A stretch of DNA of 64,000 nucleotides from Promethearchaeota archaeon (GTDB lineage: Archaea; Asgardarchaeota; Lokiarchaeia; Sigyniarchaeales; SOKP01): NCBI GenBank assembly GCA_019058445.1, contig JAHPZA010000006.1, positions 992,001 to 1,056,000 on the forward strand, in the 5' to 3' direction. The position numbers and the translations under genes were made by a program. The notes beneath the pieces are model-generated. The model saw only the letters and a list, made by a program, of their open reading frames with translations, was not told where the DNA came from and did no database searches. How positions within the stretch are numbered: the first letter of the stretch is position 1; every line of letters starts with the position of its first letter. Positions 25,329 to 43,720 of this stretch are shown one piece after another.

Positions 25329-25523
25329 CTTTTTATACCTCAGATCTTTTTCGCATATCCAGTAATTTTGATTTTTCGGTCATATTTACTTTATTCGTTG
25401 AATTAAAGATCAATAAATTGTAATCATTAATTAAATTAATGAAATTGCGTTTACTTTATTATTATTGCCGATTAAAATGAAGATTTTATGTAAGTAGTAT
25501 TGTTCATAATGGTGAATGGATAC

Positions 25524-26201
25524 ATGATAAAAATAGGAGATAAAACCATAAATCCCACCAAAATTATTTGTGTGGGCACAAATTATATGGATCATATCGA
25601 AGAGACTAAATTGCCAGTACCTAAAGAGCCGGTTCTTTTTCCTAAGACTTTAAACTGCTTAATAAGTGATGGAGACCCTATAATTTATCCAAAATTATTG
25701 TTTAACAATCGTAGGTTAAAAAGGGTAGATTTTGAAGTTGAGCTCGCGTTTATAATAAAGGATAAGTGCAAAGATGTGCCTAAAGATGAGACTTATGAGC
25801 ATGTCCTGGGATATTCCGTTTTTAATGATGTTACGGCTCGTAAAATGCAAACAAAGGATATAGTTTCTCAATTACCCTGGTTTCGCTCAAAATCGCTTGA
25901 TACTTTTGGTCCCATTGGTCCAAGGATCGCGTCTGTTGATGAAATACAAGATCCTCACAATTTAAAGATCGATTTAAAAGTAAATGGAGAAGTAAAGCAA
26001 TCATCTAATACGAGACACTTATTGTTTAAAATTCCGGACTTAATGGAATATATTTCTAGTTTATTTACTATGGAACCAGGGGATATTGTTGCAACAGGTA
26101 CTCCATCTGGGATTAGCCCTGTGTTACCCGGTGATGTAATTGAAGCTACTATTGAGAAAATAGGAACTCTTACAAATAAGGTTTTATTAGAGGGAGATTG
26201 A
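25524..26201 (+). CDS. fumarylacetoacetate hydrolase family
   Basis: KIICVGTNYMDH, DFEVELA, NDVTAR and ATGTPSG. Confidence 0.93.
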   Translation: MIKIGDKTINPTKIICVGTNYMDHIEETKLPVPKEPVLFPKTLNCLISDGDPIIYPKLLFNNRRLKRVDFEVELAFIIKDKCKDVPKDETYEHVLGYSVFNDVTARKMQTKDIVSQLPWFRSKSLDTFGPIGPRIASVDEIQDPHNLKIDLKVNGEVKQSSNTRHLLFKIPDLMEYISSLFTMEPGDIVATGTPSGISPVLPGDVIEATIEKIGTLTNKVLLEGD

Positions 26202-26210
26202 CTGTATTAT

Positions 26211-26882
26211 ATGAAAATTGGAGACCTTGAGATTTTTCCGACGAAAATTATTTGCTTAGGGCGTAATTACGCTGAACATGCCAAAGAGATGAATTCTCAA
26301 GTACCCCCAGAACCTATTTTTTTTGGTAAAACCATTAACTGTCTAATTAAAAACAAGGAACCTATTATTTATCCTCGAATTTTATATGAGAATCCTGAGA
26401 TCAATCGCGTGGATCATGAAGTTGAGCTAGCTTTCATAATAAAAAAGAAATGCAAAAATATCAACCCGGAAGAGTATGAAGATTTTATCCTTGGATATAC
26501 TATTTTTCTCGATATTACGGCTCGAAAGATGCAAAAAAAAGATAGAGGAATTAATCTACCATGGTACCGGTCTAAAAATTTCGATACTTTTGGCCCAATC
26601 GGTCCACAAATAATTGAAGAATGTGAGAATCCTCATAATCTAAAAATTGAATTAAAAGTAAATGGAGAGGTCAAACAGTCATCTAATACAAAGTTTATGA
26701 TATTTAAAATTCCAGAAATCATTGCATATATCTCAAAATATCTTACATTAGACCCAGGAGACATAATTGCTACAGGCACTCCAAGTGGAGTTGGTCCCAT
26801 CCTCCCTGGAGATGTTCTCGAGGCCTCAATTGATAAAATAGGTACCCTAACAAATAAAGTTATATTAGAAGATTCAGATTGA
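26211..26882 (+). CDS. fumarylacetoacetate hydrolase family (tandem paralog)
   Basis: KIICLGRNYAEH, DHEVELA and ATGTPSGVG. Confidence 0.93.
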   Translation: MKIGDLEIFPTKIICLGRNYAEHAKEMNSQVPPEPIFFGKTINCLIKNKEPIIYPRILYENPEINRVDHEVELAFIIKKKCKNINPEEYEDFILGYTIFLDITARKMQKKDRGINLPWYRSKNFDTFGPIGPQIIEECENPHNLKIELKVNGEVKQSSNTKFMIFKIPEIIAYISKYLTLDPGDIIATGTPSGVGPILPGDVLEASIDKIGTLTNKVILEDSD

Positions 26883-28341: not shown

Positions 28342-29082
28342 TTATTCTTTGACTATCCAGTTTGCAATACGTTCTGGCATAGTCCAACCAATATAATTTA
28401 AGATGGAAGCTGTAATCAATAAAAGTCTTGTTATAACTAAAGATATTGGATTTAATGGAATTGCCGTATCTAGAATACTACCAATGAGGAATACAATAAA
28501 ACCAAGAAAGATAAATTTCCCCTTCCATCGGTTTCTTGCATCTTCTGATTGTAAAGATCTATGCAAGAAGATTATTTGTGTAACTAAAGAAACTACAAGT
28601 ATAAGTAAAATATACCACGTAACAAAGTTTCTAGTTTCAGAGTCAAATCGAGTAACTCTAATAACCAGAAATGAGGGATCAACTACAAGAAAGTACATGA
28701 AAAATATAGTATATAAAATGCCGATTGCTAGCCATATGGAAAAAATTTTCCATTTTGATTTTGGATATATAAGATACGCAAAGGAAAACACCCAAAAGAT
28801 GGTTGTTAATGACAAAAATCCAAAACTTATAAAAACATATAAAGAATCGGATAATTCTAAATCAAAAAATGCGTATAAAATAAACGCAAGGGAAGAGCCC
28901 CACCAACCTGAAGTAACAAATGTCATCATAAGTCCTATTGTAAGGAGCTCAGTTTTTTTATGGGTAAAATACTTTGAAGTAATCTTAAATCCTATAAAAA
29001 TTGAAATTACTACGCTCAGCATAGTTAAAATACCTTGTAATAATTCTAATTGTGTTAAACCTTCTAAGCCCATAAATATCAC
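28342..29082 (-). CDS. stand-alone 7-TM membrane protein
   Basis: About 7 TM helices; paralog of 29264..30004 (ELLT.G, RW.GKF, Y.GW..P). Confidence 0.8.
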   Translation of the reverse strand: MIFMGLEGLTQLELLQGILTMLSVVISIFIGFKITSKYFTHKKTELLTIGLMMTFVTSGWWGSSLAFILYAFFDLELSDSLYVFISFGFLSLTTIFWVFSFAYLIYPKSKWKIFSIWLAIGILYTIFFMYFLVVDPSFLVIRVTRFDSETRNFVTWYILLILVVSLVTQIIFLHRSLQSEDARNRWKGKFIFLGFIVFLIGSILDTAIPLNPISLVITRLLLITASILNYIGWTMPERIANWIVKE

Positions 29083-29263
29083 TTTTTTTGAAGCGAAATA
29101 AATTAGTAATAATAAAATAAATTTTCTATTTATAAATCTGTTTAATTAAATAAGTGCTGTCATATCCTTACAGCTCTTTGCGAACCTTATCATATCGTTG
29201 ATTTTTCTGTAATATTGTAAATTTCAAAAATATGGGAAAAAAAATAAATAAATTACAAAATTT

Positions 29264-30004
29264 TTAGATTTCTTGCTGCTCTTTTATTACCAATTTAGCG
29301 ATACTTTTCGGTAAAAGCCATCCAAAATAGCTGATTATAGAAGATATAACCCGAAGAGTTCTCGTAAGAATTATAATTAATGCTGTATCTGGAAGAAACA
29401 TACCTATTAACCCAGAAACGGCTCCTATAATCATAGAAATTAGTAAAAACTTTCCTCTCCATTTTATTTTCGGATCTTGTGAACGGAAGCATCTATGTAT
29501 AAAGATTGACATTGTAATTAAAAGTGCCACAACAACAAATAATAAGAAACTGCTAATATATAGAAATGCCTCACCAGTAATTTTTCCCGTTCTACGTCCT
29601 AAACTTTCTGGGTCGGTAAGTAAAAAATACAACAGGAAAATGTCGTATAAAGCACTAATTATTCCAAATATCAGCATAATTTTTTTCACCGATTTTGGAT
29701 AAACTAAAATGGCGAATGAGTACATCCAAAAAAGCAATCCAAGCGGTACTAAGAGATGAAATGATAAATGAAAGACTAGTCCAGGCTCGTAATTATAGAG
29801 AATAATCAAAAAAAAAGTGATTGAACTTGACCAGTACACCACGGACCCGAAAGCTAAACTAATACCTACTGTTAGAAGTTCCCTGCGCTTATATTCTACA
29901 TATTTCCAAGCTATTATTATCCCCACAAATATACCGATTAAATTCGCTAAGGTTGTAAAGATACCATTTATAATGTCTAAATTTGATAAATCGCTTAATG
30001 CCAA
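29264..30004 (-). CDS. stand-alone 7-TM membrane protein
   Basis: Same length (246 aa) and motifs as the neighbouring gene. Confidence 0.8.
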   Translation of the reverse strand: MALSDLSNLDIINGIFTTLANLIGIFVGIIIAWKYVEYKRRELLTVGISLAFGSVVYWSSSITFFLIILYNYEPGLVFHLSFHLLVPLGLLFWMYSFAILVYPKSVKKIMLIFGIISALYDIFLLYFLLTDPESLGRRTGKITGEAFLYISSFLLFVVVALLITMSIFIHRCFRSQDPKIKWRGKFLLISMIIGAVSGLIGMFLPDTALIIILTRTLRVISSIISYFGWLLPKSIAKLVIKEQQEI

Positions 30005-33361: not shown

Positions 33362-36300
33362 ATGAAATTCAATTTAAAAAAACTTACATCATTAATAGAT
33401 GAACATAGGAAAACAACAACAATAGGTATATTTGTTTTAATAGTATCAGCGGGTATCCTTGTATTTTTAGCACCTGCCTTGTTTGATTATTATTACGAAG
33501 AACCTTTGGATGAAGAAGATAATGATATAGATTCAGTATTGTGGAGGTTTGGTAAAGGAATGCCTGGTACGGGAGCAACAATGCAACCCGAAAAAGTATC
33601 TTTTATAAGCGGAGGAGAAGAGTATATTGTAGTCGGAACTGACGGAGGGATTGCTACTCTTACATTAGATGGAATTATAAGTATGAGTTATATGACTTTT
33701 GGTGATGTAATTTCGTTTGAGTTAATCGAAGATATCTCAGGGGATGGTCAAAAAGATATTGTTTTAATTGTCTATGATAGAGACCATGCTAATGTTATTG
33801 CTATTGCTTCGAGTAACGGAGAAGAGATATGGAAGTATGATCCACGAGTCAAAGGTTATGATTCCGAAACCTTTGCCACTCGAGAATTTATTACATATAC
33901 CTGGGATCTTGTAGTAATAGATGATATTGATGATGATGGTACAGATGATGTCGTTATTTCCTCTTGGAATAGAATTATTGCCTTAGAGGGGGATGAGGGA
34001 GATGAGATTTGGATAAATAATGATGCTTGTACAAATGATATTTGGAATATTGAGGTTTTAGATGATAAAATTATTGCTGGTTCAGAAGCAGGAGAATTAG
34101 TGGCAGTTGATATGGAGGATGGTAAACTTGAATGGGTTTCAGAAATAGAACCAACGACAACTATATTACTTCGAAGTATGGCAGTCGTTGTAGAGAGGGA
34201 AATAGCAAGCTCTATTAACGATATCATCATAGACGGAGACAATATTATTGTTTCTGCGGATAATGGATATATCTATCTTGTTTCAGGAGATGATGGAGAT
34301 GAACTAGATGACTATGAGGTTCATGAGATTGATGAATATGAGGATTATGTGGGTGATACCTCAGACGCTCTTACATCTCCTTATAGCTGTGAGAGAAGGA
34401 TCTTTCAGCGTGCTGGGTTAAAATTATTTGAGATCAAAGACATAAATAACGACGGTTCCAATGAATATATGGCAATTTCTTTCCACCTTGAATATTCTGA
34501 AGAAGATTTTCATGATATAGAAGATCTTGAGTTTGAGGGATTTATTTTTAAATGTGATGATGATGAGATTGATGATACGTTAGGTGGTGATTTTAGTTAT
34601 GATGAAACACTATACACCGCTTCTTATCCAGAATTCATTAGGGTAGATTCCGAAGTTAGATGCTATTTTTTTAGAAATAATTTTGAAGGCACTACGGGTG
34701 GTGAAAGTAATTATCAAGGAATTTACTATAACGATTATGTTACTGACTCTTTAAACCCTACTAGATCTACAAGAGTCGTAAAAACTGGAGATGAATGGGA
34801 AGATGAGGCGAATGACGATGATACTAGGGGAAAATACTTATTAAATGTAGGAGATGTTAACGAGGATGGCAGTGATGATTTGTTTGCAATAAGTGATGAT
34901 GGAAAATATTTGCTTATTGATACAAAAAACAGTCAGACTATTTGGTCGAGATCTAAAGCAGCTGGAGGTTCAGAACTCATCCCAATTGAAGATATTGATA
35001 ATGATGGAGTAAGAGACTTTTTATTTAAGAAATATAGTGATTTTGAGCCTACATGGAGGGAATACTCTGGTGAAGATATAGATGTTCCTAGTTGGAATTA
35101 TTATGGAACAGAAGAAGGAGATCCCGCAGAGGATCAAATTATAATCTCCGAATTTTTAACCATTAGTGCCAGAACAGGCAGAGTAATATGGGAATTTAGC
35201 GTACCTGATCCTGCTTATTACGAGGGATTAAGGGAAGTGATTAATATTGGAGATGTCGATGGCGATAATATTGATGACTATGCTGGCTGGATAATTCCCT
35301 CTGATTACCCTCCGGAAGTCCTAAATCACATCCGGGATATATCAGGAGGAACTTCTGTATCAACAACAACTTATGGACCTGAAAGAAATAATTACGTTGA
35401 AGAAGCGATTAATAGAGCATTGTTAGTAGGGTACACACGATTTCTGGCTATCAATGGATCAAACGGTTTAATTTTCTGGAATACTCCTCTAATCGATTTC
35501 CCTTATAAATACTATCGAGACTATGAATATGGGGGGAATTATAATGACCCTACTAATCCTCAAGTTAACGCGGGAGAGATTTATCATAGAACATACGATC
35601 GTATCCCTCTTAACTGGACTAACTACGCATCCGATAGCGATCGGGATCATATTCTATGGACAAATCCATGGGACAGTTCAACTTTAATGCATGCAACGAA
35701 CCTTGGACGTGAATCAGGAACAACAAGTGATTCACTTTTCGATCTTTGGGGAGATAATGGAAAAAACCATACGATTACATCTTATAATTCGTCGGCATTG
35801 GCACTAATCGGTAATCCTCAAACTAGCTCTTCAGAAGAAACTAAAGAACAAGATAATTATAATTGGGTTGTGGATTCAGAATCCTCTAGTGGAAGCCAAA
35901 AAATATCGCTTGAAATGTCATTTAATCAATCTCTAGAAATTCAGAGCGATTCAGATTACCTTATGATAGATTATGCTGGAAATCTTACAACAAAAGTTGC
36001 TCAAATTGAACTATTTATCTATAATTTCTCAGATGATAATTGGATTAAAATAAGTCCGAAATCTATAAATTCCACATCTTTTACAACCATGCAAAAAACC
36101 TTTGAAGATATTCAAGATATTGTCAAAGCTGCTGATAATAATCGAGTTAAAATCAAAATTGAAGCAACTGATTCGAATAGTTTTTCTCTCTCGATTGATG
36201 AATTAGTTGTTAACTATATATATGAGCTCGGAAATTATACCCTGAAAGCAGAGCAAGCAGGAAGCACTTGGGTGACTTCAATCAATTTAACTATTCCTTT

Positions 36301-38650
36301 ACAATTTGGAACAGATTATCATGAACTTGCTCAGATCGACAGAATATCCGCTTTTAAAATGCAAACTAAAGCATTAATTGATCTTACAGGTCCTGAAGAA
36401 TGGAGGTCATTTAACTTTATATATGAAATTCTTAATTCTACTTCCGGTCAATGGTCTCCATTTTATATTAATGCAAGTAGCCGTTATCTGAATAAGGATC
36501 ACCCCATGAATGCTTGGTATGGGGGCTATAAAAATAGTTCAACAGGTGGATTTAGGCATAATGCTACAAGTTTCGAGTTATCTGATGTCTTGAGGTATGA
36601 TATGATGTATATAATTCGACGGGGTACCTATAATCCATCAGGTTTATGGGGGATAGACGATGGCATAGATTTTGATGGTGAAAATAGAACCATTATGTGG
36701 CCATTTATTGATGCAAACAATAATGTGAAAATTCGCATAAATATCACAAATACCAATAAACCTTTTAATTTAACAATTGATAGTTTTGGACTGGGCGTGT
36801 TCTACTGGGGAGTATTTGGTAATGATTGGGATAGTAGCTATGTCTATAATTTGGAAACTGATGAATGGGACGAAAATTTAGATAATATTTTAAATCTAAA
36901 AATTTTAGACTTTAAAGCAATAAACGGTACGGGTAATGATTCTTTCGATGTAGTAGTTGTCGCCGGATTTGAAACAAGTGGTAGTTGGAGCTCTAGATTA
37001 ATTCTATTTAACGTTAAAAATCAAACTATAAACGCTCAATGGGATCGCAATAGTAGGGATATAGTCCCGTATAATATTGTGAGTATTACATATTTGAATA
37101 ATACTCAAAACGGTTGGCTATTAAGCGGTACATTTAACGATCCCTCTACTCTATTTTCTCATAAATACATTCAAAATGCGAACTGGGATAACACAATAAC
37201 TAATTACGATAACTATACTGATCCAACGATAACTTATAAAGCTACTTCTATAGATATAACAAATCAATGGTCTCAATTCTATGAAGTTCCTGGAACAGTC
37301 GAATACAGATGGGGAAAATTGGGTATCATTCTAGGGCAATACGGCGATTATAATGATTACCATGAAAAAATTAAAATTATTAATCCAGATACTTTAGCAA
37401 CTATTTGTATTATTAATCCGACTAATTTGGACTATTTAGGAAGGTCACAATATTGGACTACCAGAAGAAATGATTTTAGTATGGAAGGTGCCGGATATAA
37501 AATAAGATTTTCATACGCGGACTTTACCGGAGATGGTTATTTTGAGCACGTAGCTTTGGCTGAAGGAGGTCGGGTCATTAAAATTTTCAGCGGTACAACC
37601 GTCGATCCAGGTGATGCATTTGTCAGTATTGACCTTGAAGAATTAATTGAAGAAGGGGAAGTTAGCGACAAATACAATGAGTGGTCAGAAGAAGTTGACA
37701 CTTCTTTCAATTTGCCATTCGCATCATGCGGAGATATTAACGATGATCATCGTGAAGATGGAATAGTTGGAATGCAAATGGCCAAGCAAGAATGGGATGA
37801 AAGACTGTATTCAAAGGGAGCTGCAGTTCTATGTTTGGACATTACTTCCAGTTCTGGGACCGATTTAGAACTTATTGAATTTGAAAATAGTGGTGATGAC
37901 AACGATGATGATGATGAGCGAGGTTTTGATAAAGATGCGTGGCAATTAGAGACCTATGATTATGAGTATGAATGGTCTGATGATAGATATGAATATGTCG
38001 ACTTTATGGAAAATATCGGAGATTTCAATGATGATGGTGAAGATGACATTATTTGCGGTCATCGTACATATACACGTGCCGAAGGTGCCTATATAACCGG
38101 TTATATTACCGACTTATTGGATGTCTATAATCAAGAATTGTTATATAGGTTTAATTTAGAGAGCGTTGAAGCAATTTATCCTGTTGGTGATATTACAGGA
38201 GATGGAAACAACGAATTCATACTCGCAAGCGGTGAGTCATTTTTCTGCATAAATTCGGAATTTGAAGTCGAATTTAAAAACATTGATGATGATGATGAAA
38301 TGTCATCGAGTAGATTCACGATCGAATGGGAGACGGAAGGTGATTACGATTATTTTGAGCTAGTGATTAATGATAATAGTTATTGTATTACGGAGTATAC
38401 GGAATGCAAAGTTTCTCTTGGTCAAGGTGAGAAAAAAGTTCAAATTTTTATGTACGATAAAAGCGGAGTCGTCATAGCTGTAGACGAGGTAAACATTACG
38501 GTCCCTGCAGATTATTCAATGTGGGTGTTGACTGTTATAATAGCAGGTATATCTGCAGCCCTTGTGGTAACTTATCGACGGATGAAAAATAAGAATAAGG
38601 GGATTGTTCTAATCGATAAAGATAAAAAAATGGAGGAGTTAAAGATATGA
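33362..38650 (+). CDS. giant membrane-anchored FG-GAP/PQQ-like beta-propeller surface protein
   Basis: N-terminal TM; ~10 DxxxDGxxD Ca-binding loops; G..IW propeller motifs; many NxS/T sequons; C-terminal Ig-like domain, TM and basic tail. Confidence 0.8.
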   Translation: MKFNLKKLTSLIDEHRKTTTIGIFVLIVSAGILVFLAPALFDYYYEEPLDEEDNDIDSVLWRFGKGMPGTGATMQPEKVSFISGGEEYIVVGTDGGIATLTLDGIISMSYMTFGDVISFELIEDISGDGQKDIVLIVYDRDHANVIAIASSNGEEIWKYDPRVKGYDSETFATREFITYTWDLVVIDDIDDDGTDDVVISSWNRIIALEGDEGDEIWINNDACTNDIWNIEVLDDKIIAGSEAGELVAVDMEDGKLEWVSEIEPTTTILLRSMAVVVEREIASSINDIIIDGDNIIVSADNGYIYLVSGDDGDELDDYEVHEIDEYEDYVGDTSDALTSPYSCERRIFQRAGLKLFEIKDINNDGSNEYMAISFHLEYSEEDFHDIEDLEFEGFIFKCDDDEIDDTLGGDFSYDETLYTASYPEFIRVDSEVRCYFFRNNFEGTTGGESNYQGIYYNDYVTDSLNPTRSTRVVKTGDEWEDEANDDDTRGKYLLNVGDVNEDGSDDLFAISDDGKYLLIDTKNSQTIWSRSKAAGGSELIPIEDIDNDGVRDFLFKKYSDFEPTWREYSGEDIDVPSWNYYGTEEGDPAEDQIIISEFLTISARTGRVIWEFSVPDPAYYEGLREVINIGDVDGDNIDDYAGWIIPSDYPPEVLNHIRDISGGTSVSTTTYGPERNNYVEEAINRALLVGYTRFLAINGSNGLIFWNTPLIDFPYKYYRDYEYGGNYNDPTNPQVNAGEIYHRTYDRIPLNWTNYASDSDRDHILWTNPWDSSTLMHATNLGRESGTTSDSLFDLWGDNGKNHTITSYNSSALALIGNPQTSSSEETKEQDNYNWVVDSESSSGSQKISLEMSFNQSLEIQSDSDYLMIDYAGNLTTKVAQIELFIYNFSDDNWIKISPKSINSTSFTTMQKTFEDIQDIVKAADNNRVKIKIEATDSNSFSLSIDELVVNYIYELGNYTLKAEQAGSTWVTSINLTIPLQFGTDYHELAQIDRISAFKMQTKALIDLTGPEEWRSFNFIYEILNSTSGQWSPFYINASSRYLNKDHPMNAWYGGYKNSSTGGFRHNATSFELSDVLRYDMMYIIRRGTYNPSGLWGIDDGIDFDGENRTIMWPFIDANNNVKIRINITNTNKPFNLTIDSFGLGVFYWGVFGNDWDSSYVYNLETDEWDENLDNILNLKILDFKAINGTGNDSFDVVVVAGFETSGSWSSRLILFNVKNQTINAQWDRNSRDIVPYNIVSITYLNNTQNGWLLSGTFNDPSTLFSHKYIQNANWDNTITNYDNYTDPTITYKATSIDITNQWSQFYEVPGTVEYRWGKLGIILGQYGDYNDYHEKIKIINPDTLATICIINPTNLDYLGRSQYWTTRRNDFSMEGAGYKIRFSYADFTGDGYFEHVALAEGGRVIKIFSGTTVDPGDAFVSIDLEELIEEGEVSDKYNEWSEEVDTSFNLPFASCGDINDDHREDGIVGMQMAKQEWDERLYSKGAAVLCLDITSSSGTDLELIEFENSGDDNDDDDERGFDKDAWQLETYDYEYEWSDDRYEYVDFMENIGDFNDDGEDDIICGHRTYTRAEGAYITGYITDLLDVYNQELLYRFNLESVEAIYPVGDITGDGNNEFILASGESFFCINSEFEVEFKNIDDDDEMSSSRFTIEWETEGDYDYFELVINDNSYCITEYTECKVSLGQGEKKVQIFMYDKSGVVIAVDEVNITVPADYSMWVLTVIIAGISAALVVTYRRMKNKNKGIVLIDKDKKMEELKI

Positions 38651-39627
38651 TTAAAAAAGAGAAGGTTACGGAGAGGAAAACAGATTTTAAATACGAAATC
38701 TGGAGTAATGAACTCCAAAAAATCTACGGGAAGAAGGATAAAGCATTTGAAGCTGTAAAAAAAATAAATCTCCGTGTAGAACCCGGAATTCACGGTTTTT
38801 TAGGGCCTAACGGAGCAGGTAAAACAACAACCATGAGTATGCTGGTTGGAGCTATTTCTATAACCTCTGGTGAGGCTAAAATAAGAAATGAAGATGCAGG
38901 AAGCGTTGCTGCGAGGCGGTTATTTGGGTTCTTACCCCAAGATCCTGTTTTTTACAATCATATGACGGGAGAGGATTACCTAATTTACATGGGAAAGCTA
39001 GGAGGATTGCATAAAACAGAAGCAAGGAAGAGAGCTCAAGAGCTATGTGCGTATTTTGATATTTTCGACGATAGAGTCCGGCCTATAGGGGAATATTCTG
39101 GGGGTATGAAACAAAAAATCGGGATTGCAGCGGCACTTATTCACAAACCAAAATTATTAATTTTAGATGAACCAACGGCCAATTTGGATCCAATAGGACG
39201 TGCAAGTATAATAGAAAAAATCAAGGAAATTTCTAAAACAGTAAGTGTATTTGTATCTAGCCACATACTATCCGAAATTGAACAGATGTGCGATCGGGTA
39301 ACTATGATTAATAACGGTGAAATCGTTATTTCAGATACGTTAAAAAATATCAAGAAGAAATATATCGGAAACACTTATCAATTAGACACTAATAAAAACC
39401 AGGAAATTTTACAATCCCTAGAAAAGAAGGATTATGTGCAAAAAGCCTGGATAAAAGAGGAAGACGAAACAGTTCAAGTAATTCCTAAAGATGCTGACAG
39501 ACTACAGACGGAGATACCTAAGTTAATATTAGATAATAAAGCGATAATGTATAGTTTCCATATACCCGAGGTGTCACTACAGGATATATTTATGGAAGTA
39601 TATGCTTTGGGAGGGAGTAAAAAATGA
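38647..39627 (+). CDS. ABC-2 type transporter ATP-binding protein
   Basis: GPNGAGKTT, YSGGMKQK, LILDEPT and SSH motifs. Confidence 0.95.
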   Translation: MIKKEKVTERKTDFKYEIWSNELQKIYGKKDKAFEAVKKINLRVEPGIHGFLGPNGAGKTTTMSMLVGAISITSGEAKIRNEDAGSVAARRLFGFLPQDPVFYNHMTGEDYLIYMGKLGGLHKTEARKRAQELCAYFDIFDDRVRPIGEYSGGMKQKIGIAAALIHKPKLLILDEPTANLDPIGRASIIEKIKEISKTVSVFVSSHILSEIEQMCDRVTMINNGEIVISDTLKNIKKKYIGNTYQLDTNKNQEILQSLEKKDYVQKAWIKEEDETVQVIPKDADRLQTEIPKLILDNKAIMYSFHIPEVSLQDIFMEVYALGGSKK

Positions 39628-40628
39628 GCTTAGAAACGATTAAAAAAAAGACAAAATCTCTATTCTTAAGAGTAAAATCAGAAACTGTGGAGAATGAAGC
39701 ATTCAGAAATATGCTAATATTAACTATAAAGACCTATCAAGATTTAACATCACTTAAGAAATTTTTAATTTCGTTAGTTGGGATGATGTTATTTCCGATC
39801 ATCTTCCTTTCATTCGAAACGACCATTGATTATAATTCAATTTCTGTTCAACACGCTGCAGCAGCCATAAGCATCCAAATAATATTCCCTATGTTCTTTT
39901 GGACTTTAGGAATCGCTTTCATCTGCATTATTGGTACTAGCGGAGCGTCTCTTATTGCAGAAGAGGTTCATTCGGGAACCATGTTGATTTTAGTAAGTAA
40001 GCCAATTCGCCGAATAAAAATATTTCTGGGAAAATTTCTTGGATTATTCTTATATGGGGCAGTTTTAAGTTTTTGTGCGGTATTTCTATTAGGTTGGATA
40101 GCTGTGCTGAGATATTCTGCCAATCTACTTCACTTTTTTGCATTGATGCCATTTTTATTGGCATCCTATCTATATTCATTAGTTCTTTTGCTTATATTTT
40201 GTAGTATTACACTGGCTCTTTCATCAATCATGGATCGCCCAAGAAATGCTGCATTAGGGGTTTTATTCTTGGTTATTTTTTCTTTCATAGGAATGATGGT
40301 TCTTAAGATGTTCATTGCAGATTATTACGAAGATTATTATTTATATCATATCGATCTCGGTTATCATTTATCAAACATCTATATATCCTTTTTAGAGGCA
40401 TTTAATGCAATTCCTTTAGTAGCAGAGTGGCAGCAGTGGTTTGCTATGACGACTGGCGTATATGAAACTGCGTCACCTACGGATCCCGATCAAGATATAA
40501 ATCCTGGGGGAATGATAAGGACAGATTATTATCTACCGATCTTCTCCTTACTAATATGGATTGGTATTGCTATTGGTCTTTTAGCTTATGGCTTGTTTAG
40601 TTTAAAGAACAGAGAGATTTCGGTTTAA
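39624..40628 (+). CDS. ABC-2 type permease
   Basis: IAEEVHSGTMLILVSKPIRR...GKF signature; 6 TM. Confidence 0.9.
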   Translation: MSLETIKKKTKSLFLRVKSETVENEAFRNMLILTIKTYQDLTSLKKFLISLVGMMLFPIIFLSFETTIDYNSISVQHAAAAISIQIIFPMFFWTLGIAFICIIGTSGASLIAEEVHSGTMLILVSKPIRRIKIFLGKFLGLFLYGAVLSFCAVFLLGWIAVLRYSANLLHFFALMPFLLASYLYSLVLLLIFCSITLALSSIMDRPRNAALGVLFLVIFSFIGMMVLKMFIADYYEDYYLYHIDLGYHLSNIYISFLEAFNAIPLVAEWQQWFAMTTGVYETASPTDPDQDINPGGMIRTDYYLPIFSLLIWIGIAIGLLAYGLFSLKNREISV

Positions 40629-42077: not shown

Positions 42078-42863
42078 ATGAGACAAAAACTAGATTTAAA
42101 CATTCCTAAATATAAGATATTTGATTTTCATAGGCATATATCAAATTTGAGCGAATTCGAACAAAATTTAACTGAATTTAATATAGATAAATTTTGTTTA
42201 ATGCCCACTACGATAGAAAACGATTTTGAAAATATTTCTTCTTATATTGAAAATATTAAACCGTATTATGAAAAATACAAAGATAGAGCGCTGATTTTTG
42301 GAGCATTAGATTTCTCAAATGATTACAATTATAATAGAGAGCTATTAGAAAAACAAAAAAAAAATATAAATATAAGAGGTATAAAACTGCACCCTGACCA
42401 AGGATTTGAGCTAACTAAGAAATTTTTAAAACCGTACTTCCACGCAATATCTGATGTATTTGGTTATAAGATACCCATTTATGTTCATACGGATTGGCCA
42501 TTGAAAGAAGAACAGAGGTATGCTCCAGATAGTATAAAAAATACTTTTGACAAAATAGTTGCTAATTTTTCAGATTTTAACTTTATAATGGGACATGCAG
42601 GAGGTTCAGGTGCGTACTTAAACGTGTGGAAAAGCTGTAAAAAATTTCCTAATGTGTATCTGGAAACTTCAATGTCTCCAGTAACCTCACCTTTGGAGGA
42701 AGTTATATGGAAAATAGGTCCCCAAAAATTGCTATTTGGGAGTAATTACCCTTATTGCGCAACAAGCATAGAACTTGTAAAATTACAAAGTCTCTATAAA
42801 ATATCCGAAGAAGATATAAGGATGGCTCTAGAATCAAATGCGGAGGTGTTATTTTCAAAATGA
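42078..42863 (+). CDS. amidohydrolase_2 family protein
   Basis: DFHRH, GIKLHP, GHAGG and LFGSNYP. Confidence 0.88.
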   Translation: MRQKLDLNIPKYKIFDFHRHISNLSEFEQNLTEFNIDKFCLMPTTIENDFENISSYIENIKPYYEKYKDRALIFGALDFSNDYNYNRELLEKQKKNINIRGIKLHPDQGFELTKKFLKPYFHAISDVFGYKIPIYVHTDWPLKEEQRYAPDSIKNTFDKIVANFSDFNFIMGHAGGSGAYLNVWKSCKKFPNVYLETSMSPVTSPLEEVIWKIGPQKLLFGSNYPYCATSIELVKLQSLYKISEEDIRMALESNAEVLFSK

Positions 42864-43720
42864 TAATCTATAAAGATGAGGAATACCGTTTATGGGATGC
42901 CCATTCTCACTTTTCCAATTTGGTGGCAAGACCATTGAAATCTTTTCTGAAAGCTTTAGCAATCTATGAGATAATGGATTTAATTTTCGCGAATTGGCAA
43001 AGGTTCAAAAGCATATCTGAGGACAGAACAGAGAAGAACGTGTATCTATATAAGTTAATATTAGATTTTTATCAAATTGATAAGGCAATTCACTTACCCG
43101 TTTTTAAAATGGATAGAAAACTAAGTTATAGAATGAACGAGTTATTTCCCCAAAAACTTTTTGGATTTGGTTATATTAATCCGAGGTCAAAAAAACTTGA
43201 TCAGGACCTTCAAGATCTTGTTGATCATAAGGTATATGGCATTAAAATACACCCAGATATTATGAAATTTACTTTTAAGACAGCTCAAGAAGAACTTATA
43301 AAAATTCTTCGATTTTGTGGCGAAAATAAAATTATCGTATTATCTCATACAGGGAGTCATTCAACACTTAAGAACTTAACACCCATTTTAAAGAAAAGTG
43401 AAGAATCGGTTTTTATTATAGGGCATTCAGGATTATGTCCTCAAGTTTCAGATGCTCTTCAAGTGGCAAAGGAGTGTCCTAATTCGTATTTAGAAATGTC
43501 GGGTAATCCATATACTTACAAATTCATAGAAGCCATAAAAGATCCTGACATCGGTGTGGAAAGAATATTGTTTGGCACAGATATTCCTAGCTTACATCCT
43601 AGGGTTGAAATTCAGAAAGTCTTAGCACTTCCAATCTCAACAGAAGAAAAACGACTTATATTCTCCTACAATCTAGAAAGAGTAATGAGAGATTTCTTAA
43701 AGGATAAGTTTAAAATATAA
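42860..43720 (+). CDS. amidohydrolase_2 family protein
   Basis: DAHSH, GIKIHP, GHSG and LFGTDIP. Confidence 0.88.
   Translation: MIIYKDEEYRLWDAHSHFSNLVARPLKSFLKALAIYEIMDLIFANWQRFKSISEDRTEKNVYLYKLILDFYQIDKAIHLPVFKMDRKLSYRMNELFPQKLFGFGYINPRSKKLDQDLQDLVDHKVYGIKIHPDIMKFTFKTAQEELIKILRFCGENKIIVLSHTGSHSTLKNLTPILKKSEESVFIIGHSGLCPQVSDALQVAKECPNSYLEMSGNPYTYKFIEAIKDPDIGVERILFGTDIPSLHPRVEIQKVLALPISTEEKRLIFSYNLERVMRDFLKDKFKI

Follow-up and report, generated by a model that had tools for sequence, protein, structure and literature searches.

A propeller–ATPase–permease cassette of Promethearchaeota as a candidate NosDFY-like surface machine

Introduction

Why would an archaeon encode a very large surface protein in overlapping genes with an ATP-driven membrane transporter? 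The question is raised by three consecutive genes, here called the cassette, in a 64,000-nucleotide stretch of a Promethearchaeota archaeon genome (GenBank assembly GCA_019058445.1, contig JAHPZA010000006.1, positions 992,001 to 1,056,000 of the forward strand), referred to below as the window and numbered from its first letter. The genes encode a 1762-residue protein, an ATP-binding cassette (ABC) ATPase and a permease. An earlier note, made from the sequence of the window, had likened the large protein to integrin alpha and proposed a dedicated adhesion or surface-sensing apparatus. Here we show that the large protein belongs to the PQQ/VCBS-type propellers and that its gene is inherited together with those of a NosF-class ATPase and a NosY-family permease. 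Contact between the products is weakly supported by structure prediction, and the trio may represent a machine that moves a partner rather than a cargo.

Asgard surface proteins are visible in tomograms and mostly unassigned, and the cassette offers a candidate machine made up of three defined proteins and provided with an energy source. Cultured Asgard cells have no wall, their surface proteins have been proposed to mediate contacts, and they crawl with balanced adhesion (PMC13716822). Propeller–fibronectin surface proteins of Lokiarchaeia have been noted as a class and as candidates for surface densities (10.1101/2025.07.22.663070). Integrin-repeat eukaryotic signature proteins are mentioned in PMC9258230 with credit to Liu et al. 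2021; the word “integrin” is absent from the main text of the Liu et al. preprint, whose supplements may list this family, and the terms “integrin” and “ABC” are absent from PMC12962969 and PMC13734099. A fixed ABC partner is not mentioned for Asgard propeller–fibronectin proteins in the available parts of this literature, and a literature search, at the level of its listings, returned no paper describing a propeller–ATPase–permease cassette.

Results

Three genes inherited together

The cassette comprises three genes on the forward strand:

33362..38650, + strand: large surface glycoprotein, 1762 amino acids (aa), proposed outer subunit (open reading frame, ORF; 29 homologous proteins including itself)
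38647..39627, + strand: ABC ATPase of DrrA/GldA/NosF type, 326 aa, with a C-terminal DrrA1-3_C domain (profile matches)
39624..40628, + strand: six-helix ABC-2 (type V) permease of the NosY family, 334 aa (PF12679)

Both junctions are ATGA overlaps, as the earlier note had read them. The overlap itself is not kept, the stop-to-start spacing in relatives running from -25 to +23 nucleotides (nt). Genome and metagenome scans yielded 64 loci, 22 of them cut by contig ends; a locus was informative if it held the 3' end of the propeller gene and at least 300 nt beyond (n = 42). There is overlap between the collections, and the loci do not count as independent. An ATPase gene stands immediately 3' of the propeller gene in 41 of the 42 informative loci, and a permease gene comes next in 38 of those 41, two others being cut by contig ends. 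The exception, L077 (9761-14476), is a second propeller copy behind a complete cassette, with no ATPase of its own and no hydrophobic run in its tail; it may share the ABC pair of the neighbouring cassette.

The surroundings of the trio vary, with 16 different nearest upstream and 13 different nearest downstream genes. No flanking gene is conserved beside it, and neither is any biosynthetic or cargo gene. In three congeners (G004, G006 and G009) the trio is found next to genes that in the source genome (G000) are direct neighbours, without the trio between them, so it relocates as a block. Of 301 genomes in the phylum, 23 gave a propeller match that was strong (E below 1e-100), and 22 of these also have the permease; a permease match without a strong propeller match occurs in 20 further genomes. 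FastTree phylogenies of 33 cassettes agree closely: propeller and ATPase share 18 supported splits with 2 conflicts (patristic r 0.97), propeller and permease 19 with 1 conflict (r 0.99).

Named homologues are Promethearchaeota/Lokiarchaeia. Compact forms of 1156–1199 aa, about 22% identical, keep the propeller–ATPase–permease order (L145, L159, L160, L161, L163, L176 and L181; L182 ends inside the ATPase). Among them, L145 is labelled Wukongarchaeota, and L161 and L176 Gerd- or Heimdallarchaeota (cluster names). They lack the insert described below, keep blades, stalk and transmembrane (TM) helix, and pass the Pfam FG-GAP cut-offs; across the family, the ectodomain can be shorter by 200–600 residues with stalk, TM helix and tail retained. 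A profile search for more compact homologues gave four proteins, none of them a new full-length member. The dedicated tie to an ABC-2 ATPase and permease was proposed in the earlier note, which named operon conservation in Asgard genomes as a check; it is supported by linkage, co-occurrence, congruent trees and the shared order in the Wukong- and Gerd/Heimdall-labelled forms. A propeller fold (below) is present and the ABC genes accompany homologues of the large protein at other loci, so that neither finding named in the earlier note as a refutation was obtained.

The cassette is also present in a second family of the window's order (L180), and in the class of G261 full-length permease matches are confined to one family (10 of 12 genomes); three genomes of the window's order that consist of one contig each yielded neither propeller nor permease. 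Outside Asgard, permease relatives occur in Undinarchaeales, Chloroflexota and Ruminiclostridium, and plasmid searches for their gene context returned nothing. Within G000 the large protein is single copy, with no paralogues found, and its permease family has one member, though many larger ORFs exist there.

Some loci deserve separate mention. Stops or frameshifts break each of the three cassette genes in L178 (3402-9010, G284), through decay or assembly error. L064, L072 and L073, titled Odinarchaeota or Nanopelagicaceae, share Promethearchaeota flanking genes and are probably mislabelled bins. Upstream of the cassette, Gerd/Heimdall-labelled genomes carry a 320-aa surface protein as two or three tandem paralogues, at the following places:

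L159:12928-13899, L160:12843-14893, L161:1340-3968, L163:11123-14147: tandem 320-aa paralogues
L176:783-2832, L178:177-3263, L181, L182: tandem 320-aa paralogues

Members of this 320-aa family have hydrophobic helices at both termini and share a conserved end, GG[ML]K...NFA; those scanned matched nothing in NCBIfam and nothing in Pfam above the cut-off. They are possible clients of the proposed machine.

Architecture of the large protein

Along the large protein we distinguish the following parts:

33428..33484, + strand: N-terminal hydrophobic helix, residues 23–41, signal peptide or signal anchor (hydropathy; sequence poorly conserved)
33533..33553, + strand: isolated strand with conserved W61 (W in at least 90% of rows in two alignments)
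33554..34957, + strand: propeller 1, eight blades, residues about 65–532, PQQ/BamB-type with Ca-type loops (VIA-align)
34964..35497, + strand: blades 9–10, residues 535–712 (blade-to-blade HH probabilities 80–94; some second-ring alignments begin here)
35519..36871, + strand: sequon-rich insert, residues about 720–1170, one or two beta-sandwich domains (absent from compact forms)
35747..36232, + strand: optional jelly-roll with a fold like that of carbohydrate-binding modules (CBM), nested in the insert, residues about 796–957 (structure comparison)
36887..38269, + strand: blades 11–17, residues 1176–1636, membrane-proximal ring (model 2, propeller-like but distorted)
38270..38515, + strand: fibronectin type III (FnIII)-like stalk domain, residues 1637–1718 (aligned in 18 of 18 rows)
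38516..38572, + strand: C-terminal TM helix, residues 1719–1737 (hydropathy)
38573..38647, + strand: cytoplasmic tail of 25 residues, a basic stretch, an IVLI run (38603-38614), then GGAGG codons (tail comparison)

The protein is very acidic, as had been noted (329 Asp and Glu vs 126 Lys and Arg). It carries ten Dx[DN]xDG-type loops, nine of which fit the strict pattern, against a mean of 0.04 and a maximum of 2 in 1000 shuffles; six lie at residues 124–639 and four at residues 1387–1618. The earlier note's count of about ten calcium loops and its two clusters thus stand, but not the assignment to FG-GAP type, since there is no GAP/cage motif and Pfam FG-GAP_3 scores 17.3 bits (cut-off 26.9), nor the separation of about 400 residues. 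The clusters are about 750 residues apart, of which about 450 (720–1170) are a non-propeller insert and the remainder blades with degenerate loops. PQQ_2 is above cut-off in the large protein, PQQ_2 and FAM234 propeller matches occur in 28 of 29 family members, and a PQQ-type docking motif occurs 146 times in 35 proteins (5.8 when shuffled).

AlphaFold2 models were built on a 29-row alignment for residues 52–1240 (model 1) and 533–1719 (model 2), and 17 candidate blades were delimited by eye. Blades 2, 3, 4, 6, 8, 9, 10 and 15–17 are interlinked with HH probabilities of 70–96; blades 1, 5, 7, 12 and 13 are too divergent to link by HH comparison. The propeller fold is borne out by structure comparison: in VIA-align, propeller 1 (residues 65–523 in the model) matches the 8-bladed Tako8 with Z 26.6 over 307 aligned residues (root-mean-square deviation, rmsd, 3.2), and Fbw7 and BamB with Z 23–25. 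Residues 1174–1634 fit 7-bladed rings badly (Z 8–9.8, rmsd 6–9), and blades 15–17 are homologous to blades 2–10. We infer that blades 9–10 and 11–17 form one ring interrupted by the insert. In all, the large protein comprises about 17 PQQ/VCBS-type blades, arranged as an 8-bladed ring and a probable second ring that is interrupted by jelly-roll domains. The W61 strand appears to close the last blade (17) in a velcro closure that would tie the N-terminus to the stalk, as that blade is without its W strand and the W61 strand has low confidence (predicted local distance difference test, pLDDT) when the last blade is absent from the model.

The sequon-rich beta-sandwich stretch that had been described is real: 22 of 23 N-glycosylation sequons fall within residues 698–1284, and the insert contains a jelly-roll fold, modelled at residues 802–955. 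This domain resembles CBM, furin P domain and PNGase F sandwiches with Z 8–10, a likeness of fold only. It is missing from 14 of 28 homologues, long and short forms alternating on the tree. The two sandwiches of the insert are weakly alike (HH probability 19, E 0.0013, control 0.31), and the best ESM Atlas neighbour of the insert domain, at 0.84, is a lead only. One form of 1462 aa (L060:8965-13353) is without some 1.5 blades (most of blades 8–9) and retains its ABC pair.

The ends of the protein are close to their earlier description and differ from it in detail. The C-terminal sandwich taken for an Ig-like domain is present and models as FnIII-like (residues 1645–1718 vs FnIII module 3pe9: Z 9.2, rmsd 1.8, 74 aligned). 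The TM helix and basic tail stand, but RRMKNKNK is only the start of the tail, the conserved part being the IVLI run after it; the last codons carry the Shine-Dalgarno-like GGAGG of the ATPase. The N-terminal TM segment exists as a hydrophobic helix, which may be a signal peptide or a signal anchor.

ATPase and permease

Walker A, the YSGG signature, Walker B and the H-loop are all intact in the ATPase, which also has its DrrA1-3_C domain. It matches the NosF class with E 1.5e-28, and in the PDB it comes closest to ABCA lipid transporters and DrrA-like exporters. The permease, with six helices, scores 71.6 bits against PF12679 (cut-off 27.2); a 36-row profile searched against the PDB with E up to 10 gave NosY (7o0y) as the sole match (E 7e-4). 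One loop of the permease stands out:

40452..40526, + strand: outer permease loop with an acidic DPDQ, candidate docking site (loop motif comparison)

The pattern D.[DE][QN], picked after viewing the alignment, is present in this loop in 23 of 23 propeller-linked permeases and in 0 of 20 unlinked relatives. The permease trees used alongside were quick trees, the second of which left out 26 unlabelled rows, L164 and L047.

Three observations concern the relatives of the pair. In L148:6380-9326, L151:271-3145 and L153:7627-10371 (G292), sister pairs are each followed by a 250–307-aa surface protein ending in SIPFG, a TM helix and a basic stretch, and the permease loops of these pairs have a Cys pair in place of DPDQ; these proteins constitute a second partner type with its own permease loop. 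Many stand-alone sister ATPases have a changed ABC signature (YSEG, YSMG or YSRG; L147, L149, L150, L152, L154, L155-L157, L173, L175, L179), and propeller-linked ATPases mostly retain YSGG. A more distant ATPase–permease pair (L164:7829-10727, G064) is followed by a membrane-anchored protein of prenyltransferase fold.

Signs of physical contact

Of 39 distinct tails, 38 have a hydrophobic run about 10 residues after the TM helix; the one without it belongs to the orphan copy L077. Second codon positions of this run are T in 35–37 of 37 sequences while the other positions vary, which points to selection on the protein.

A complex of two permeases, one nucleotide-binding domain (NBD) and residues 1632–1762 of the large protein was predicted with a score of 0.54, in the weak band, against 0.02 for the best control. 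Runs share at least 80% of contacts, and partner pLDDT is 76–77. Among reference pairs, 116 of 157 solved ones reach the score mark, as do 2 of 215 mismatched ones, counts that hold only roughly for this complex. The multimer prediction proposed in the earlier note lends weak support. We consider it likely that the three proteins form a physical complex.

Discussion

The reading that we prefer, and hold tentatively at a little under even confidence, is that the trio is a NosDFY-like machine that moves a glycosylated double propeller by ATP through cycles of binding and release. A 2026 review describes NosDF2Y2 as an ABC-type complex whose conformation changes when ATP binds; NosL is then released and N2O reductase recruited, which drives copper hand-over, and the maps show no sulfur transport (PMC13685413). 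By analogy, a type V ABC core of two ATPases and two NosY-family permeases would grip the outer subunit at the FnIII stalk, the TM helix and the tail. That subunit would be a double beta-propeller, glycosylated and stiffened by calcium, to which jelly-roll domains are optionally added. Opening and closing of the permease dimer, powered by the binding and hydrolysis of ATP, would move the propellers, and this motion would drive the binding and release of an outside client instead of the pumping of a small solute. The client might be a protein or glycan at the surface of a cell that has no S-layer lattice. Should the complex form, we think it somewhat more probable that it is motor-like than that it exports, on account of the NosY match, the lack of a conserved cargo or biosynthesis gene and the fixed anchor under a variable head; these reasons are circumstantial. 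A bolder version, in which the cassette is an ATP-powered receptor of wall-less Asgard cells, its motor tilting the propeller head to grip and release substrates or partner cells, and predates the Loki/Wukong/Heimdall split, strikes us as unlikely.

A number of observations weigh against the NosDFY-like reading. The client is hypothetical. Behind the ATPase of L100 stands a 194-aa ORF that gave no permease match. Twenty rows of sister ATPase–permease pairs of the same family have no propeller gene nearby, so the ABC core can exist alone, at least in cis, and loss of D.[DE][QN] together with loss of the partner amounts to one evolutionary change on the tree. Congruent trees are expected of any long-lived operon. 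The orphan tail is a single case, in a copy adjoining a full cassette; the tail run lies at a fixed 41–47 nt before the ATPase start, so that a constraint at the level of DNA may play a part, and it is not conserved in the compact forms, which have other tails. The AlphaFold2 models are middling (pLDDT 60 and 62, predicted template modelling score 0.46). As to the complex prediction, only 18 of the 157 solved pairs and both mismatches fall at scores of 0.60 or below; the individual contacts were not reported, and likeness to solved ABC complexes may contribute.

The main rival makes the ABC pair a true type V exporter or floppase (of lipid, glycolipid or peptide), with the propeller as a docking or acceptor subunit, the place where exported material is received or assembled. 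Most type V ABC systems move lipids or peptides, the best PDB matches of the ATPase are of that kind, the stand-alone sister pairs suggest that the core has a task of its own, and all the linkage evidence fits equally. Against this, the ABCA likeness is generic for this NBD class while the permease matches NosY only, and nothing resembling a biosynthetic or cargo gene is conserved beside the trio; we rate this alternative as rather unlikely. That the propeller is an adhesin or contact sensor without integrin homology, its grip and release toggled by the ATPase during crawling or partner contact, would suit wall-less cells that crawl with balanced adhesion (PMC13716822), the listing of propeller-plus-fibronectin proteins among surface-density candidates (10.1101/2025.07.22.663070) and the modular jelly-roll inserts, which befit a receptor. 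Its single copy in G000 and slow, tree-like evolution are unlike many adhesins, however, and with matches in 23 of 301 genomes and none in the three one-contig genomes of the same order its distribution is too patchy for a general Asgard adhesion system. Nothing in the data indicates adhesion, sensing or contact with syntrophic partners in particular, and we hold this proposal to be improbable.

The ABC pair might instead act in the biogenesis of the large protein, where it would place, fold, glycosylate or shed it and bind it only briefly. A protein of 1762 aa that has 23 sequons and nested domains makes high demands on such a helper, and the inheritance is strictly one-to-one; yet many larger ORFs of G000 coexist with one member of this permease family, and the compact, less glycosylated forms keep the ABC pair, so we give this explanation only a small chance. 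Mere co-regulation of neighbours whose products do not touch is smaller still in our estimate: it would accommodate the stand-alone sister pairs, the persistence of operons without physical contact and the weak complex score, but not readily a gene order kept at 22% identity and across many relocations, nor permease loop and tail features that track the partner. Least credible of all, and close to negligible, is descent from a common ancestor with EMC1 or integrin alpha, which would make the large protein a eukaryotic signature protein. EMC1 tops the Foldseek list for the N-terminal model and also has two propellers, integrin tops the list for the C-terminal model, and compact forms occur in Wukong- and Heimdall-labelled genomes; but generic propellers score alike or better, cage motif and GFFKR are lacking, the nearest language-model neighbours are bacterial PQQ/FG-GAP proteins, and the partner is an ABC permease.

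If the NosDFY-like reading is true, the cassette adds to the few ABC systems whose work is to move a partner and not a cargo, in lineages near the origin of eukaryotes; if the receptor version is true, a surface protein comes under inside-out control independently of integrins. In either case calcium-loop propellers in Asgard genomes should not be counted as integrins. The compact version of about 1160 aa is suited to expression and cryo-electron microscopy, and the permease DPDQ loop and the tail run are two mutable sites. Limits on its importance are the patchy distribution, the hypothetical nature of its client and the failure to find it in the three one-contig relatives searched.

Immediate surroundings in the window

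A gap of 218 nt separates the cassette from the preceding rpl11-rpl1-rpl10-rpl12 genes. A functional tie to that operon or to the downstream MFS gene was considered and set aside: the arrangement recurs in 0 of 64 loci and is local only. Recent foreign origin was likewise considered, and the composition is not decisive, with cassette GC of 0.34–0.37 and third-position GC (GC3) of 0.26–0.32 against genome means of 0.327 and 0.243; the ATPase lies about 2 standard deviations above the mean in GC3 (standard deviation 0.038). A sigma-70 promoter scan, a model unsuited to archaea, gave 5 sites vs 3.0 in shuffled sequence, and the TATA position profile across the genome was flat, giving no signal that bears on an internal promoter.

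Elsewhere in the window, tandem similar pairs comprise two fumarylacetoacetate-hydrolase-like ORFs identified by eye (25500-26882), two seven-helix-type membrane proteins (28342-30004) and two Amidohydro_2 proteins (42078-43720). The largest ORFs of the genome are five in tandem, each of about 2650 aa (G000:C9:430337-471657).

Comparison with known systems

In integrin alpha a single 7-bladed propeller stands at the N-terminus, each blade carrying a cage motif, and thigh and calf domains follow (PMC3192720). The integrin-alpha layout proposed in the earlier note does not hold: the single 7-bladed ring contrasts with an 8-bladed N-terminal ring (307 aligned, Z 26.6) and 17 candidate blades with PQQ-type docking motifs, the FG-GAP/cage motif found in every integrin blade occurs 0 times here, and in place of thigh, calf-1 and calf-2 there is one 80-residue stalk domain of FnIII type (about 82 residues, 1637–1718). 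Across 35 proteins the strict cage motif occurs once (0.94 when shuffled) and a relaxed one 9 times (3.9 +/- 2.0), fewer than 0.3 per protein. GFFKR is the membrane-proximal motif of integrin alpha; it is found in 0 of 49 C-termini of the family. Membership in integrin alpha was accordingly rejected on ring size, cage motif, leg domains and GFFKR. Some compact C-termini (L163, L176, L181, L182) have a TM helix ending in KLFFRFKRK, loosely like integrin KxGFFKR without the Gly, an ending absent from other forms.

The calcium-type Dx[DN]xDG blade loops are common to both proteins and are not diagnostic of integrin, being common to many VCBS propellers (PMC8023676). A sandwich domain, single TM helix and short tail are common to integrin alpha, LINKIN/ITFG1 and the large protein, and LINKIN also has a short conserved tail (PMC4275582). 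The partner differs, being here an ABC transporter; integrin beta (PF00362) was not found in 5 genomes, in a search where no positive control matched. Foldseek does place an integrin first for the C-terminal half, but with E 1.7e-5, query TM-score 0.16 and rmsd 16.8, and in the sequence search integrin chains have E 0.05–0.3, none better among the best 60 of 77 rows. The resemblance to integrin is superficial only.

EMC1 has two propellers, the distal one 8-bladed (PMC7785296), and is the top Foldseek match of the N-terminal model (human EMC1, E 3e-11, TM-score 0.23, 8–10% identity). Both proteins carry two propellers outside the membrane above a C-terminal TM helix, a likeness at fold level in which the second ring is poorly modelled; calcium-type loops, jelly-roll inserts, FnIII stalk and ABC partner set the large protein apart. 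No EMC1 family appeared among the profile-scan matches or, for EMC1 itself, among the best 60 of 77 sequence-search rows, and neither EMC1 nor integrin is among the 50 VIA-align rows listed for model 1. Across the structure comparisons, BamB, WD40 and designed propellers score like or above EMC1. The nearest language-model neighbours, at 0.82 and as leads only, are the bacterial proteins named above.

The VCBS/PQQ supercluster contains integrins and many other families (PMC8023676). With prokaryotic propellers of this kind (BamB, PQQ_2, FG-GAP_3, FAM234-like) the large protein shares an Asp-rich AB loop and the PQQ-type docking motif, and on these sequence features it is a member of the supercluster; it differs in its roughly 17 blades in two rings, nested jelly-rolls and fixed ABC partner. 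Vicinal Cys-Cys is a feature of PQQ quinoprotein dehydrogenases. Such an enzyme was considered and rejected, CC occurring in 1 of 49 proteins and the match covering about 75 residues at 26–28 bits (cut-off 480).

Among transport systems, GldA/GldF/GldG of Flavobacterium match far under cut-off (GldA 186 vs 402 bits, GldF 21 vs 288 bits). GldG is a membrane-anchored accessory subunit beside ATPase and permease, unrelated to the large protein as far as Pfam and NCBIfam scans show. Judged by sequence, the closest solved analogue of the cassette's membrane part is NosFY. NosDFY (NosD1F2Y2), the maturation complex of N2O reductase, and the cassette both combine a NosY-family permease, a NosF-class ATPase and one dedicated outer subunit encoded alongside. 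No copper client is evident for the cassette, and its permease has a longer outer loop, with DPDQ; the outer subunit of NosDFY is the NosD beta-helix, whereas that of the cassette is a double propeller of 1160–1780 aa on a FnIII stalk.

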